Positions 18,063 through 26,370 of a stretch of 64,000 bases of DNA are shown in pieces. Source of the DNA: Blastocatellia bacterium (lineage in GTDB: Bacteria > Acidobacteriota > Blastocatellia > UBA7656); assembly GCA_963804815.1 (NCBI GenBank), contig CAWDRU010000002.1, positions 5,187,122 to 5,251,121 of the forward strand. The letters run 5' to 3'. A program made the position numbers and the translations under genes. How positions within the stretch are numbered: position 1 is the stretch's first letter; every line of letters starts with the position of its first letter. The notes beneath the pieces are model-generated. The model did not search any database, was not told where the DNA came from, and saw nothing but the letters and a program-made list of their open reading frames with translations.

Positions 18063-18189
18063 AAGTAGGGGCAGGGCTTGTCCCTGCCCGGATGGCCGAC
18101 AGGCCATGACAGTCATCGCCTTACAGCGATTCGGGCAGGGACAAGCCCTGCCCCTACCATGATTGTCAACCGACTTTGTTACAGCCGTG
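18044..18189. mobile_element. 146-bp MITE, copy 1
   Basis: 145/146 identical to 47752-47897. Terminal inverted repeats GGCTGTAACAAAGT / ACTTTGTTACAGCC. Internal 25-bp inverted repeat GTAGGGGCAGGGCTTGTCCCTGCCC / GGGCAGGGACAAGCCCTGCCCCTAC. Flanked by the direct repeat CAGCGAAGG (18035-18043, 18191-18199). Confidence 0.85.
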
Positions 18190-18220
18190 GCAGCGAAGGC
18201 GGAGAGAGAGAATTGCCTTG

Positions 18221-18622
18221 ATGCAAGGCATCGTAGTAGACACAGATGTCATATCATTCATTTTCAAAGGCGATACAAGAGCAGATTTGTATGATCCTCA
18301 TCTGGTTGGTAAATTGACGATAGCTTCTTTTATGACTGTTGCAGAGCTTGATCGCTGGGCCATTCAATACACTTGGGGAGAAGCGAAACGCAACGGACTG
18401 GAGACATTTCTACAGAAGTATTTCATCTCTTTCAGTGATCGAGCTTTGTGTCGCAAGTGGGCCGAAGCCGTATATAGCGCACGCCGAAACGGGCGACCCA
18501 TAAGAACTGCTGATGCCTGGATTGCTGCGACTGCTTTGCTGTACGAAGTCCCGCTCGTTACTCACAATTGCTCTAATTATGCCGGTGTTGCCGGGCTGGA
18601 TGTTATCTCAGAAGCCCCTTGA
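18221..18622 (+). CDS. vapC: PIN-domain ribonuclease toxin (VapC-like)
   Basis: MQGIVVDTDVISF..., MTVAEL, TADAWIAATAL and THN give PIN-type acidic residue spacing. Confidence 0.8.
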   Translation: MQGIVVDTDVISFIFKGDTRADLYDPHLVGKLTIASFMTVAELDRWAIQYTWGEAKRNGLETFLQKYFISFSDRALCRKWAEAVYSARRNGRPIRTADAWIAATALLYEVPLVTHNCSNYAGVAGLDVISEAP

Positions 18623-18702
18623 TGAAAGGTAAGGAGACGGCATGATGAGAAAGTGAAGCGGCGGTATACTCCGGCTACGCAGCTATGTGTATCTGGAGTA
18701 GA

Positions 18703-18867
18703 TAGGTTAGAGGCTGAATATTTGCCTGTGGCTTGTGACCACGTTAAGGAGACTACTCAACCTTCTATCCGAAGCGCCACCATAGGGCTACTAGACCCTG
18801 TATAGGAGGCTGGTGACCGCCGCAACACGAAGTCTACTCCAGAATATCTTTCAGGAGGAAACTAAAC
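18703..18867 (+). ncRNA. Candidate IS110 bridge (guide) RNA in the left non-coding end
   Basis: About 165-nt non-coding leader 5' of the recombinase. It contains TCTACTCCAGA (18833-18843), the exact complement of the flanking TCTGGAGTAGA (18692-18702). Confidence 0.35.
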
Positions 18868-19881
18868 ATGCGATTTATCGGAGTAGACCTGCACAGCAAC
18901 CAGATCACGGTTTGTTATTTGACTAAACAAGGCAAGGAGAAACTCGCAACTTTTGCCCTCAGCAAGCTCGCAGAATTTCAAAAGGGCTTGAGGCGCACGG
19001 ATCGACTGGCTGTAGAAGCCACCGGCAACACTCGCTGGTTCGTCGCTCAAGTCAAAGGGCTTGTAGAGCAGGTGGTCGTCGTAAACACGAATCAGTTCGA
19101 AGTGATTCGCAAGAGCGTCAAGAAGACCGACCAGAACGACGCGAGAGCACTGGCCTTGTTTTTAAGCAAGGAGATGTTACCGGAGGCGAGGATGAAGTCA
19201 GAGCAGGCATCGGAGATCAACTCGCTTGCGACTACGCGCGACAAGTTGGTGAAGCTTCGCACGACGCTCGTTAACAAGTTGCACGCGCTTATGCGAGGGC
19301 GAGGCGTAGCGAGTCGCAAGAGCCAGTTCCTGAGCAGGAAGGGGTTGCGAGGAGTGCTTGAGCAGGAGTGGAGCGCGACGCAGCGAGTTGAAGTGGAAGT
19401 CATAGCCAGTCAGATCCAATCGCTCAACGAAGGCATCCATCGACTCGACGAGCAGTTAGTCGAAAGCGGGGAGCAGATGCGAGGGCAGAAGAATCTGGTG
19501 TCGATCAAAGGGATAGGGCCGAGAGGTGCAGCGATCTTGCTGGGAGTGATAGGAGATGTCGCAGACTTCGAGAGCGCGGAGAAGTTGGGGAGCTATTTCG
19601 GGATAGTGCCGAGGGTGTCGAACTCGAATGAAACAGAACGGCACGGGCGGATAACGAAGAGGGGATCAAAGCTTGGACGGACGACGCTGGTGCAATGCAC
19701 TTTGGTTGCGAAGAAGTACAGCCCGTACCTGAGCCGGTTCTATGAACGGATAAAAGGAAAGAAAGGCGGAGGCAAAGCAATAATAGCCACCGCGCGGAAG
19801 TTTCTGGGAATAATCTATCGGACATTAAAGAATGATTGGGTGTTTGAGGATTTCCCTAATTTTGTCCTCGTCGAGGGCTGA
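18868..19881 (+). CDS. IS110 family transposase (DEDD recombinase)
   Basis: MRFIGVDLHSNQ N-terminus; C-terminal GIGPRGAAILLGVIGDVADFESAEKLGSYFGIVPRVSNSNETERHGRITKRGSKLGRTTL, typical of the IS110 family; GGAGG RBS. Confidence 0.9.
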   Translation: MRFIGVDLHSNQITVCYLTKQGKEKLATFALSKLAEFQKGLRRTDRLAVEATGNTRWFVAQVKGLVEQVVVVNTNQFEVIRKSVKKTDQNDARALALFLSKEMLPEARMKSEQASEINSLATTRDKLVKLRTTLVNKLHALMRGRGVASRKSQFLSRKGLRGVLEQEWSATQRVEVEVIASQIQSLNEGIHRLDEQLVESGEQMRGQKNLVSIKGIGPRGAAILLGVIGDVADFESAEKLGSYFGIVPRVSNSNETERHGRITKRGSKLGRTTLVQCTLVAKKYSPYLSRFYERIKGKKGGGKAIIATARKFLGIIYRTLKNDWVFEDFPNFVLVEG

Positions 19882-19924
19882 AATATCAACCTCGGAGTAG
19901 ACAACTCATCATAGGAGTTAATTT

Positions 19925-21091
19925 ATGGAATCGAAGTTTGCCAGATACGTCAACCGCGATGAAATCATTCAAATAGTATGCGACCTCGTGCGCCAGAACA
20001 CGGTCAACCCGCCGGGCAATGAATACCTCTGCAAGGAGATCGTCACCAGTTGCATGCAGCAACTCGGAATGGAGATCTCCTACTACGAAAAAGAACCCGG
20101 TCGCACGAACGTAGTGGGCCGAATGGGGAGCGGCGCGAAGTCAATCGGCTTCGTCTCGCACATGGACGTAGTGCCGCCGGGCGAGCTTGAGCAGTGGAAC
20201 ACGCCGCCCTTTGAACCGACCATCGAAGAAGGGCGCATATACGGGCGAGGCACGCTCGACGACAAAGGCTCTTTCGCCTGCGCCTATTCCGCGTGCAAAG
20301 CGTTTCTGGCAGAGCACGCGGACTTTGACGGCACTGTATATCTGATCGCCGCAGCCGACGAAGAGGTAGGCTCGGAGCTTGGCATCATATATCTGGTCGA
20401 AGAGTGCGGCTTGAAATTCGATGTTGCGATAATTCCTGACGGCGGGCGAATGGATCTTTCGATCTACGGCGAGAAGGGGATTCTCTGGGTCGAGCTTGAA
20501 AGTCACGGCATACAGGCGCACGGCTCGACGCCCGAACTTGGCCGCAACGCAATCATCCCGCTCGCGGAAGCGATTGCCGAAATCAAATCGCTCGATCTGG
20601 GCGCAAGCTATGACCGCGCGTTCGACGGCTGGACTATGAACGTCGGAACGATTCAGGGTGGCTCGTCAACCAATACAGTTCCGGCCATGGCTCGCGCGAC
20701 CATCGATTTCCGCCTGCCTGCCGGAATCAACAAAGAGCAGGTGCTTGCGAAGATAGAAGAGAAGGTCGCAGCCGTTCGCCATCGCTCTGCGGACGCCGAA
20801 CTGAGAGTGAAGGTGCTTCACGAAACAGAGCCGCACCTGTCGGATAAAAACTCTATCATCATTCGCAGCTTCGATGCGGCGGCGCGTCGTTTGGGGCTTC
20901 CGATGAGTTACGAGACATTCGGCGGCAACACGGTCGCAAAGAACCTCTATTTTGCAGGCATCACTTCGGTCGTGCATTATCCGGGCGACGACAAGCTGGC
21001 ACACGTGCCGAACGAATTCGTCATTATTGACGAGCTTGTGCTCGGCTCGGTGCTTTACGCCGAAACGCTCGAATCTTACTTTTTCGGTTGA
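19925..21091 (+). CDS. M20 family metallopeptidase (ArgE/DapE-like deacylase)
   Basis: SHMDVVPPG, GRGTLDDKG and AADEEVGS metal-ligand motifs. Confidence 0.8.
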   Translation: MESKFARYVNRDEIIQIVCDLVRQNTVNPPGNEYLCKEIVTSCMQQLGMEISYYEKEPGRTNVVGRMGSGAKSIGFVSHMDVVPPGELEQWNTPPFEPTIEEGRIYGRGTLDDKGSFACAYSACKAFLAEHADFDGTVYLIAAADEEVGSELGIIYLVEECGLKFDVAIIPDGGRMDLSIYGEKGILWVELESHGIQAHGSTPELGRNAIIPLAEAIAEIKSLDLGASYDRAFDGWTMNVGTIQGGSSTNTVPAMARATIDFRLPAGINKEQVLAKIEEKVAAVRHRSADAELRVKVLHETEPHLSDKNSIIIRSFDAAARRLGLPMSYETFGGNTVAKNLYFAGITSVVHYPGDDKLAHVPNEFVIIDELVLGSVLYAETLESYFFG

Positions 21092-26012: not shown

Positions 26013-26370
26013 AGTTTGTCACTTCAGGACGCACTCTCTAATTGCGAAAGGATACAGTGCAATGCGGCTAGATCGCGCGTTGTTGAATACAGTTATGCGC
26101 AAGATAACTTCTCGCGCCACATCTAAACGATGCCTGTACGGCGATTGTTAATCCCCGCAGGCGAGTTTTGTATCACAGGCTGGGTTAGACTCTCAATAGT
26201 GGATTGATGCGGAAAATGCAAAAAGCCGCCGCTGTATGTTTCGGGCCTTGCTCATCGAGGCGAAATGAACTGTCTACTCCGTCTGTTGAAACCACCGGTG
26301 ACTTGCGAGCCGCCGAGAAGGTCTAAGGCCATCCACGCCGCGTCATAAAGCGCCGTTCGTCAAGCTACGA

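Follow-up and report, generated by a model that had tools for sequence, protein, structure and literature searches.

The 64,000-nucleotide stretch of Blastocatellia DNA analyzed here (the window, whose numbering is used throughout) contains an intact, recently active insertion sequence of the IS110 family at 18637-19917. With considerable confidence, we interpret it as an element that carries a bridge RNA and inserts into ribosome-binding sites by way of an AG core, the helices formed by its repeated GGAGTAGA motif being a likely switch. The evidence comprises the ends of the element, its core and insertion sites, the conserved structure of its leader, and covariation between guides and junctions. 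It is a variant of the known RNA-guided IS110 type, with the guide order reversed relative to IS621. The coordinates of all features are listed in Table 1.

Ends, core, and copies of the element

Comparison of copies and an empty site give the element a length of 1281 bp, counting the right copy of the core. In addition to one relative at 74% identity, the genome holds six copies at 100% identity, and the block common to these runs from 18630 to 19917 between unrelated flanks that diverge at 18629 and 19918. Loose ends of metagenome contigs fall at 18629-18635 and at 19917, and in the contig of the L007 copy (relatives are denoted by L numbers) the alignment begins at 18635. A contig from another soil metagenome preserves the empty site, where one copy of TAAGGAG joins the flanks seen here; all six genome insertions lie within this sequence. 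In L007, L009, and L010, AG is the only sequence common to the left (..AAA-AG-A..) and right (..AGG-AG) junctions, which puts the core at 18635-36 and 19916-17. The insertion pattern is that of the IS110 family: the site is specific, a short core is repeated at either junction, and neither classical terminal inverted repeats nor a long duplication of the target accompany it. No transposase-less (solo or empty) copies of the end pieces were found in the genome, which ruled out an 89-bp host repeat (18630-18702 plus 19902-19917) invaded by a smaller element.

The family assignment made in the first-pass annotation was confirmed by Pfam and NCBIfam. The transposase contains DEDD_Tnp_IS110 (PF01548; E 8.7e-15) followed by Transposase_20 (PF02371; E 7.2e-21), and it scored 231.5 bits against NF033542 (IS110-family RNA-guided transposase), for which the cut-off is 140. 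Its catalytic residues D7, E50, D88, D91, and S253 align with D11, E60, D102, D105, and S241 of IS621, a comparison in which the 8wt6 chain numbering is offset by +2.

Table 1. Features of the IS110-family element, in window coordinates
Feature	Position	Strand	Basis or remark
Left target (LT) TAAGG	18630-18634	+	Host DNA; in all six copies; flanks differ upstream of 18630
AG core dinucleotide, left copy	18635-18636	+	Junction comparison in L007, L009, L010
Insertion sequence	18637-19917	+	Six identical copies, no solo ends, contig loose ends
Left sub-terminal inverted repeat ATGATGAG	18642-18649	+	Reverse complement of 19905-19912; overlaps -10-like CATGAT 18641-18646
Predicted bridge RNA	18653-18841	+	Start placed from candidate junction promoter; 3' end provisional
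Helix P-A	18658-64 with 18817-23	+	Own pair counts
5' hairpin P0	18667-74 with 18693-700	+	Folds in 16/16 relatives despite sequence divergence
Motif copy 1, segment X	18692-18702	+	3' strand of P0 and 5' strand of P1
Helix P1	18694-702 with 18833-41	+	RNAalifold compensatory pairs
Helix P2	18705-16 with 18758-70	+	RNAalifold compensatory pairs
First (target) loop, 5' strand	18717-18726	+	Variable, U-rich; candidate right-target guide
Helix P3	18727-31 with 18739-43	+	RNAalifold compensatory pairs
Target guide TAAGGAGAC	18745-18753	+	3' strand of first loop; identical to 18630-18638
Donor-region 5' strand GCCACCA	18776-18782	+	Partly complementary to core and left-end top strand AGACGGC
Helix P5	18783-88 with 18794-800	+	RNAalifold compensatory pairs
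Donor guide ATAGGAG	18802-18808	+	Identical to 19911-19917 (right end and core), same sense
Motif copy 2, reverse complement, segment X''	18833-18843	+	3' strand of P1; alternative partner of 18853-18858; complementary to right-end copy
Transposase Shine-Dalgarno region CAGGAGG	18852-18858	+	10 nt upstream of ATG 18868
Transposase (recombinase) gene, intact	18868-19881	+	337 aa; Pfam, NCBIfam, catalytic-residue alignment
Motif copy 3	18880-18887	+	Encodes Gly-Val-Asp, including catalytic D7
Motif copy 4 in right end GGAGTAGAC	19894-19902	+	Overlaps -35-like TAGACA 19898-19903; complementary to X'' plus its preceding base
Right sub-terminal inverted repeat CTCATCAT	19905-19912	+	Reverse complement of 18642-18649
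Right terminus AGGAG (last 2 bases are right core copy)	19913-19917	+	Shine-Dalgarno box now serving M20 peptidase (ATG 19925)
Predicted circle junction of joined ends	...CATAGG-AG-ACGGCATG	n/a	In silico

Predicted bridge RNA

The non-coding ends of the element are 231 nt (left) and 36 nt (right) long. The left end would encode a bridge RNA of roughly 170-190 nt, consisting of a 5' hairpin and two stem-loop modules. An RNAalifold consensus of 16 relatives contained 35 pairs, and compensatory changes were seen at 15 of these. Helix P-A crosses P1, so that both cannot be drawn in one nested fold; P-A and P0 are supported by separate pair counts among relatives. A further helix, P4 (CACC/GGUG), was dropped, since its changes were one-sided and yielded no compensatory pairs. 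The unconstrained minimum-energy fold proposed another structure for 18703-18760 and was set aside because the relatives do not support it. Scanning 18300-20300 against Rfam 15 (E<=10), a library without a bridge-RNA family, returned only two chance snoRNA matches, with an E value of 1.9.

No promoter was found in the integrated copy. A candidate promoter, TAGACA-18 nt-CATGAT (9/12), appeared only across the junction of right and left ends joined in silico; L007 and L017 have similar joined-end sites, and other relatives fail the strict rule. Expression of the bridge RNA, the position of its ends, and its binding by the recombinase are predictions from sequence.

Guide segments covary with target and element ends

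The target guide, TAAGGAGAC, equals the left target, the core, and the first two bases of the element. Being of the same sense as the left junction, it would pair with the bottom strand. Guide and junction change together among the relatives, with ATAAAAGAT in both places in L007, TCAGGAGAT in L012, and GAAGGAGCT in L057. The two element bases after the core occur in AC, AT, AA, and CT states that are matched in guide and junction, and target positions -4 and -5 covary as well. Cognate pairs of guide and junction agreed at 8.62 of 9 positions on average, compared to 7.24 for non-cognate pairs (permutation p<2e-5).

The AUAGGAG segment of the second region would read the right end of the element together with the core, and the GCCACCA strand before it would read, imperfectly, the top strand of the core and left end. 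The donor guide is TGGGAG in L019, L020, and L022, whose right end is CATGGGAG; the shift between TAGGAG and TGGGAG thus tracks the right end. Compensatory changes in the GCCACCA region were seen in L015, L017/18, L021, L025, and L057. Complementarity to the left end was 4.94 of 8 positions for cognate and 4.57 for non-cognate combinations (p=0.001), and in the present element only 4/8 positions pair. Overall, covariation links the loops to the left target, the core, and both ends of the element, the left end being weak in the present copy.

For the other half of the target, the 5' strand of the first loop is the candidate. In L010 it contains a 9-nt complement to the right flank. Significant complementarity was found neither with the six flanks of this genome nor with seven L008-type flanks. 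The longest cognate matches averaged 5.0 nt versus 4.0 nt for non-cognate ones, a difference driven by L010 (9 nt) and the low-complexity L014. Recognition of the right target by the RNA is putative.

The first-pass annotation had proposed that the leader is a bridge RNA matching DNA. This part stood, in that the 5' arm is structured and its loops match target and element ends, but the guides lie at 18745-18753 and 18802-18808 and not at 18833-18843.

Motif copies, helix P1, and a probable RNA switch

Copies of GGAGTAGA were located on the plus strand at 18695-18702, 18880-18887, and 19894-19901 and on the minus strand at 18833-18840; an unrelated fifth copy lies at 26273-26280 (-). The window thus contains 5 copies versus 0.82 expected, a count that 0/100 shuffles reached. 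The four copies reported earlier for the element are therefore real and non-random, as is the 11-nt inverted repeat composed of TCTGGAGTAGA (18692-18702) and its exact reverse complement TCTACTCCAGA (18833-18843).

Two of the copies form helix P1 (GGAGTAGA/TCTACTCC), for which relatives show the compensatory forms GAGGCGGA/TCCGCCTC, AAGTAGA/TCTACTT, and GGAGCAG/CTGCTCC. P0 and P1 overlap by at least 6 nt of segment X in 17/18 relatives. In addition, the minimum-energy fold joins X'' to the Shine-Dalgarno region of the transposase, a pairing that most relatives can form as well. Three helices, X':X (P0), X:X'' (P1), and X'' with the transposase Shine-Dalgarno box, would be mutually exclusive, and two conformers of near-equal energy were calculated (-65.6 versus -66.9 kcal/mol). 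The X''/Shine-Dalgarno duplexes show compensatory extensions, with a modest mean z of -1.4, and the strand overlaps of the alternative helices are conserved in relatives. Since CUCC-GGAG pairing is expected for any Shine-Dalgarno box, it is these extensions and overlaps that argue for a switch. A four-segment switch linking bridge-RNA folding to transposase translation is probable.

Motif copy 3 was considered as a regulated partner of X'' and rejected as a conserved feature, since relatives use other Gly-Val-Asp codons (e.g., GGTGTTGAT and GGTGTCGAC) that do not covary with X''. For the right-end copy, most relatives keep GAGTAGA at a distance of 13-23 nt from the element's right end, and duplexes between the RNA tail and the right end were more stable for cognate (-13.9 kcal/mol) than for non-cognate combinations (-11.5 kcal/mol; p<5e-5), with complementarity of up to 14 nt in L009 and L025. 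A role of TCTACTCC as a discontiguous left-end guide (GTCT..CTCC versus GGAGAC) was discarded because the preceding base stays independent of whether the left end has C or T.

Targeting of ribosome-binding sites

Before insertion, the left target TAAGG belonged to the Shine-Dalgarno box of the M20 peptidase gene that lies downstream. The element would have entered this box, TAAGG-AG, by RNA-guided site-specific recombination, with AG as the crossover core. As AGGAG is the element's own right terminus, each insertion rebuilds the ribosome-binding site of the gene behind it. About 44/47 right junctions of relatives from many phyla end in CAT(A/G)GGAG, followed within approximately 3-13 nt by a start codon. 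Hosts of the clade belong to Acidobacteriota, Planctomycetota, Omnitrophota, Pseudomonadota, and other phyla. Host ribosome-binding sites are thus what the element is steered to, and its guide RNA is the predicted agent of this steering.

Alternative explanations

According to the model originally drawn for this locus, the element spans 18703-19893 and is bordered by an 8-bp GGAGTAGA duplication or target, and 18833-18843 is a bridge-RNA loop pairing with flanking DNA. The motif copies are indeed real and over-represented, and the 11-nt complementarity is exact. However, identity among the six copies continues beyond the outer motifs, for 65 nt on the left and 16 nt on the right, the end pieces were never seen without the element in the genome, and the empty site holds TAAGGAG rather than GGAGTAGA. 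Given the extent of the shared block, all four motif copies are internal, and the outer two, described as lying just outside the element, are its own sequence and not insertion-site DNA. Similarly, 18833-18843, which had been expected in an internal loop, proved to be the 3' strand of helix P1, with 18833-18841 in covarying pairs. That model had itself named true ends mapping elsewhere as evidence against it, and the six copies together with the empty site put them at 18637 and 19917 with an AG core. We consider it practically untenable.

A leader that is a mere structured 5' untranslated region controlling transposase translation would account for the plausible anti-Shine-Dalgarno helix. The junction matches would then derive from common AAGGAG strings, in a leader rich in GGAG/CUCC, and the protein would pick the target, in line with a right target without clear RNA complementarity. 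This is very improbable. The covariation extends to positions outside the Shine-Dalgarno consensus (the AC/AT/AA/CT states and positions -4 and -5), the donor guide shifts along with the right end, and the two-module architecture and enzyme family fit the proven IS621 system (PMC11208160, PMC11208158). It is also conceivable, and would be compatible with the bridge-RNA reading, that the TCTACTCC tail (X'') acts mainly as a DNA guide, the third of the element. Covariation of tail and right end includes positions outside P1 (the base preceding X'' forms G:C, U:A, or C:G), and the match amounts to 12-14 nt in L018, L009, and L025. On the other hand, it is absent in L021, L027, and probably L057/L015, though P1 and the guides are kept there, X'' covaries also with the Shine-Dalgarno box and with segment X of the leader, and the match could equally represent pairing of 5' and 3' untranslated regions across the transposase message. 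We therefore regard a chiefly guiding role of the tail as unlikely.

Comparison with known systems

The bridge RNA system of the IS110 group has been proven experimentally for IS621 of Escherichia coli (Durrant et al. 2024, PMC11208160; Hiraizumi et al. 2024, PMC11208158). The recombinase of the present element is likewise of DEDD/Ser type, falls into the same Pfam and NCBIfam family, and has aligned catalytic residues. In both systems the left non-coding end is long and the right one short, the guide RNA lies upstream of the gene, and the RNA is made of a 5' hairpin and two stem-loop modules whose guides include the 2-nt core. Two extra guide bases that match the other DNA partner, like the 'handshake' bases, are a further likeness, and the candidate promoter formed in silico across the right-end/left-end junction may correspond to the one that IS621 rebuilds there. 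In contrast, protein identity is low, with only the C-terminal domain aligning significantly (E 1.6e-10), and the guide order is reversed, the same-sense guides (18745-53 and 18802-08) standing 3' of the distal hairpins here and on the 5' side in IS621. The donor-reading strands apparently lie in a junction closed by P-A and not in a plain internal loop, the sub-terminal inverted repeat measures 8 bp versus 2-3 bp, the right target half is not detectably read, and the alternative helices (P0, P1, and anti-Shine-Dalgarno) and the tail/right-end match are additional to the IS621 scheme.

The order of guides, top-strand complement followed by bottom-strand match, is that of the IS1111-group seekRNA elements ISEc11, ISKpn4, and ISPa11 described by Siddiquee et al. 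in 2024 (PMC11187229), and donor-binding bases in a multiloop were reported for many IS1111 members by Durrant et al. (PMC11208160). The sub-terminal inverted repeats also fall within the IS1111 range of 7-17 bp. Unlike the present element, with its RNA upstream, IS1111 elements have their non-coding region and RNA downstream of the transposase gene.

Mycobacterial IS110-family elements of the IS900/IS901 type have been reported, in literature of the 1990s, to insert between the ribosome-binding site and the start codon of a gene. The transposase of IS900 is antisense to the target gene, whereas here the two are co-directional. Both insert in a fixed orientation at the signals for translation initiation of host genes. 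The hed/RBS context of IS900/IS901-type elements has been described (PMC8141618).

In its architecture the clade may tentatively be viewed as a third type among the bridge systems of the IS110 family, a proposal to which we give slightly less than even chances. Such a type would combine an upstream RNA, IS1111-like guide order and repeats, a 7-nt half-site (Shine-Dalgarno box plus core), a four-segment switch (X':X and X'':Shine-Dalgarno versus X:X'') tying guide-RNA folding or recombinase binding to translation, and a covarying pairing of RNA tail and right end.

Implications

Bridge recombinases are under development as programmable genome-writing tools, and their mechanism is known almost wholly from IS621 and a few relatives. 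The clade described here follows their logic but reverses the order of the guides; it has an apparent half-site target and a terminus that mends the ribosome-binding site destroyed by insertion, and segments of the guide RNA may control translation of the element's own transposase. Nature thus offers a way of testing which guide contacts are needed, as well as an example of limiting harm to the host. For genome annotation, AGGAG-bounded IS110 copies situated before genes supply the ribosome-binding sites of those genes.

Element boundaries and transposase

The 337-aa transposase scored 231 bits against the NCBIfam model "IS110 family RNA-guided transposase" (cut-off, 140), and its residues D7, E50, D88, D91, and S253 aligned with the IS621 catalytic residues D11, E60, D102, D105, and S241, bearing out the family assignment made in the first-pass annotation. 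The 8.59-Mb genome contains six copies of the element at 100% identity and one decayed relative, L007 (74%; contig 2, 5952236-5953500), in which the transposase ORF is broken into two parts. When an internal anchor was used to align the six copies, they matched completely between 18630 and 19917 and bore no relation to one another beyond these positions. In a genome-wide search, the pieces 18630-18702 and 19902-19917 were never found without the element, and therefore a host repeat was ruled out. Metagenome contigs from four soil or rhizosphere sets diverged or broke at 18629-18635 and 19917. An empty site was found on a contig of another soil metagenome, which maps to window 19922-20044 and is approximately 89% identical to the element's flanks: here the vapC-side flank leads through a single TAAGGAG into the 5' end of the M20 peptidase gene. 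This contig represents the uninserted locus of a related organism. Its spacer before the ATG is AG, versus TTAA in this genome.

At the junctions of L007 and two further relatives, L009 and L010, the left side reads ..AAA-AG-A.. and the right side ..AGG-AG. AG alone is common to both and is thus the core. The element spans 18637-19917 (1281 bp), with noncoding ends of 231 nt on the left and 36 nt on the right. The first-pass annotation had placed the ends just inside copies of GGAGTAGA, read these as flanking DNA targeted by an 11-nt leader sequence, and named ends mapping elsewhere as grounds for rejection. Since all four copies lie inside the ends established by the six copies, the contig breaks, and the empty site, this detailed model is refuted on its own terms.

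Features of the element and its leader (helices and guides are predicted)
Feature	Position	Strand	Remarks
Transposase ORF	18868-19881	+	337 aa; DEDD_Tnp_IS110 + Transposase_20
Subterminal inverted repeat	18642-49 / 19905-12		8 bp
P-A, long-range helix	18658-64 with 18817-23		GC-to-UA exchanges
P0, 5' hairpin	18667-74 with 18693-700		Folds in 16/16 sequences despite sequence differences
P1	18694-702 with 18833-41		RNAalifold consensus
P2	18705-16 with 18758-70		RNAalifold consensus
P3	18727-31 with 18739-43		RNAalifold consensus
P5	18783-88 with 18794-800		RNAalifold consensus
Right-target candidate	18717-26		5' strand, first module; variable, U-rich
Target guide TAAGGAGAC	18745-53		3' strand, first module; same sense as left junction 18630-38
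Left-end complement GCCACCA	18776-82		Strand before P5; partly complementary to top strand, core + left end
Donor guide ATAGGAG	18802-08		After P5; equals right end + core
GGAGTAGA copies 1, 3, 4	18695, 18880, 19894	+
GGAGTAGA copy 2	18833-40	-

Predicted leader RNA and its guides

The 260 nt 5' of the transposase gene could be aligned across relatives sharing just 50-80% protein identity, and the RNAalifold consensus of 16 relatives contained 35 pairs, 15 of them with compensatory changes. The predicted bridge RNA, with inferred ends at ~18653 and ~18825, would be closed by P-A, which crosses P1. The leader RNA that had been proposed is upheld as a covarying structured RNA with guides, but these lie at 18745-53 and 18802-08 and not at 18833-18843.

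In the left junction, the AG core is preceded by five target bases and followed by the element's first two bases. L007 carries ATAAAAGAT in target guide and left junction alike, versus TAAGGAGAC in this element; from the sequences, this looks like natural retargeting, or co-drift, within one genome. Guide and junction likewise share TCAGGAGAT in L012, AGAGGAG in L021, and GAAGGAGCT in the Tardibacter plasmid copy (L057), and the two element bases after the core (AC, AT, AA, or CT) change in step. Cognate guides matched the left junction at 8.62/9 positions versus 7.24 for noncognate pairs (permutation P < 2e-5, uncorrected for phylogeny). Mismatches in L009 and L010 (guide G, target A) would fit G-T wobble pairing with the bottom strand. 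At the donor-guide position, the three relatives with the right end CATGGGAG carry TGGGAG. Only 4/8 positions of the left-end complement pair in this element; compensatory changes occur in L015, L017/18, L021, L025, and L057 (P = 0.001 by permutation, ignoring phylogeny). The right-target candidate has a 9-nt match to the right flank in L010. No match was found to multiple right flanks of this element and of L008. Right-half recognition is therefore putative, and the 7-nt left half, together with the core, may be all that targeting depends on.

Insertion into Shine-Dalgarno boxes

All six genomic copies are inserted at TAAGGAG, and five of the six have an ATG 3-8 nt past the right-end AGGAG; the genome holds 454 TAAGGAG sites, 35% with an ATG 4-11 nt downstream. 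The search for relatives yielded 49 loci (identity, 41-97% across the best aligned segment; 50-80% for full-length ones) in Acidobacteriota, Planctomycetota, Omnitrophota, Pseudomonadota, and further phyla, and the plasmid copy was examined as well. Because ~44 of 47 readable right junctions show a CAT(A/G)GGAG terminus followed after ~3-13 nt by a start codon, we conclude that Shine-Dalgarno boxes are the insertion sites of the clade, that element and host gene point the same way, and that the element terminus rebuilds the box. Selection against intragenic insertions may in part contribute to the enrichment for true ribosome-binding sites. In the window, a PIN-domain (VapC-like) gene (18176-18622) has its stop codon 8 nt before the element, and the ATG of the M20 peptidase gene (19925-21091) lies 7 nt beyond the element. 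For ribosome binding, the peptidase gene now relies on the AGGAG that ends the element; its transcription depends on read-through or some other promoter.

Motif copies and a proposed RNA switch

As first reported, GGAGTAGA is present at the claimed sites (5 in the window versus 0.82 expected), and the 11-nt inverted repeat 18692-18702 / 18833-18843 has no mismatch. The fifth copy (26273-26280, minus strand) lies outside the element with no visible link to it. Copies 1 (X) and 2 (X'') are predicted to form helix P1 and not the internal loop suggested for X''. The helix is kept by double changes in relatives: GAGGCGGA/TCCGCCTC in L015, AAGTAGA/TCTACTT in L021, TAAGAGTAAA/TTTACTCTTA in L027, and GGAGCAG/CTGCTCC in L009, L010, and L020; in L057, it reaches 12 bp.

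X doubles as the 3' strand of P0, and P0 and P1 overlap by at least 6 nt in 17/18 relatives. The transposase Shine-Dalgarno box is predicted to pair with the 3' half of X'' and the next bases, and the extensions of this pairing covary (CUCCAG/CUGGAG, CUCCGGAA/UUUCGGAG, ACUCCGCUUGG/CCAAGAGGAGU, CUCCACC/GGUGGAG, and CUCUU/AAGAG). With covariation-supported helices held fixed, the conformer combining P-A, P0, and X'':Shine-Dalgarno reached -65.6 kcal/mol versus -66.9 for that with P1, a gap of ~1. We infer that these leader segments could form a four-segment switch, in which the folded bridge RNA would mask the transposase ribosome-binding site and formation of P1 would free it.

Copy 3 codes for a Gly-Val-Asp that contains catalytic D7; the codons differ among relatives, and copy 3 was thus rejected as a conserved nucleotide element. 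Copy 4 overlaps a -35-like TAGACA. Joining right end to left end in silico yielded TAGACA-18 nt-CATGAT; no promoter-like site was found in the integrated copy. Copy 4 is more than a -35 box: copy 4 and its following bases form a complement to X'' and the bases preceding X''. This complementarity covaries (the first position beyond P1 is G:C, U:A, or C:G). L018, L009, and L025 extend it to 12-14 nt, and it is missing from L021 and L027. Cognate duplexes scored -13.9 versus -11.5 kcal/mol for noncognate ones (P < 5e-5 by permutation, ignoring phylogeny). It could serve as extra donor recognition on DNA or as 5'UTR-3'UTR pairing across the transposase message. Omnitrophota-type right ends (L017, L018, L031, L052-L056) carry GAGTAGA and, a few bases on, a consensus TTGACT -35 box; motif and -35 box are separate elements in these lineages.

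Relation to known systems

The element is predicted to operate in the manner of the IS621 bridge system and has the enzyme, core, structured RNA, and guide covariation of the IS110 family. Its RNA follows the general plan of IS621, a 5' hairpin and then two stem-loop modules (PMC11208160). However, the IS621 guide order is reversed: the 5' side of the module reads the bottom strand in IS621 (PMC11208160), whereas here each module carries its same-sense guide on the 3' side. This order agrees with that of IS1111 seekRNAs (Siddiquee et al., PMC11187229), and the subterminal inverted repeat is IS1111-like, but the RNA lies 5' of the transposase gene, as in IS110 and not at the IS1111 position. 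According to a 2026 preprint, many bridge-RNA models deviate from IS621. A full-text literature search found no published account of an IS110 bridge-RNA clade targeting Shine-Dalgarno boxes. That IS900-type relatives insert at translation-initiation signals has long been known.

L057 (NZ_CP018225.1, bases 1-2258; 54% protein identity) resides on the conjugative plasmid pHSL4 of Tardibacter chloracetimidivorans, adjoining a strawberry-notch-like gene. Besides its own guide, it has a 6-nt stretch perfectly complementary to its left end. This clade member from a cultured organism could be an experimental model.
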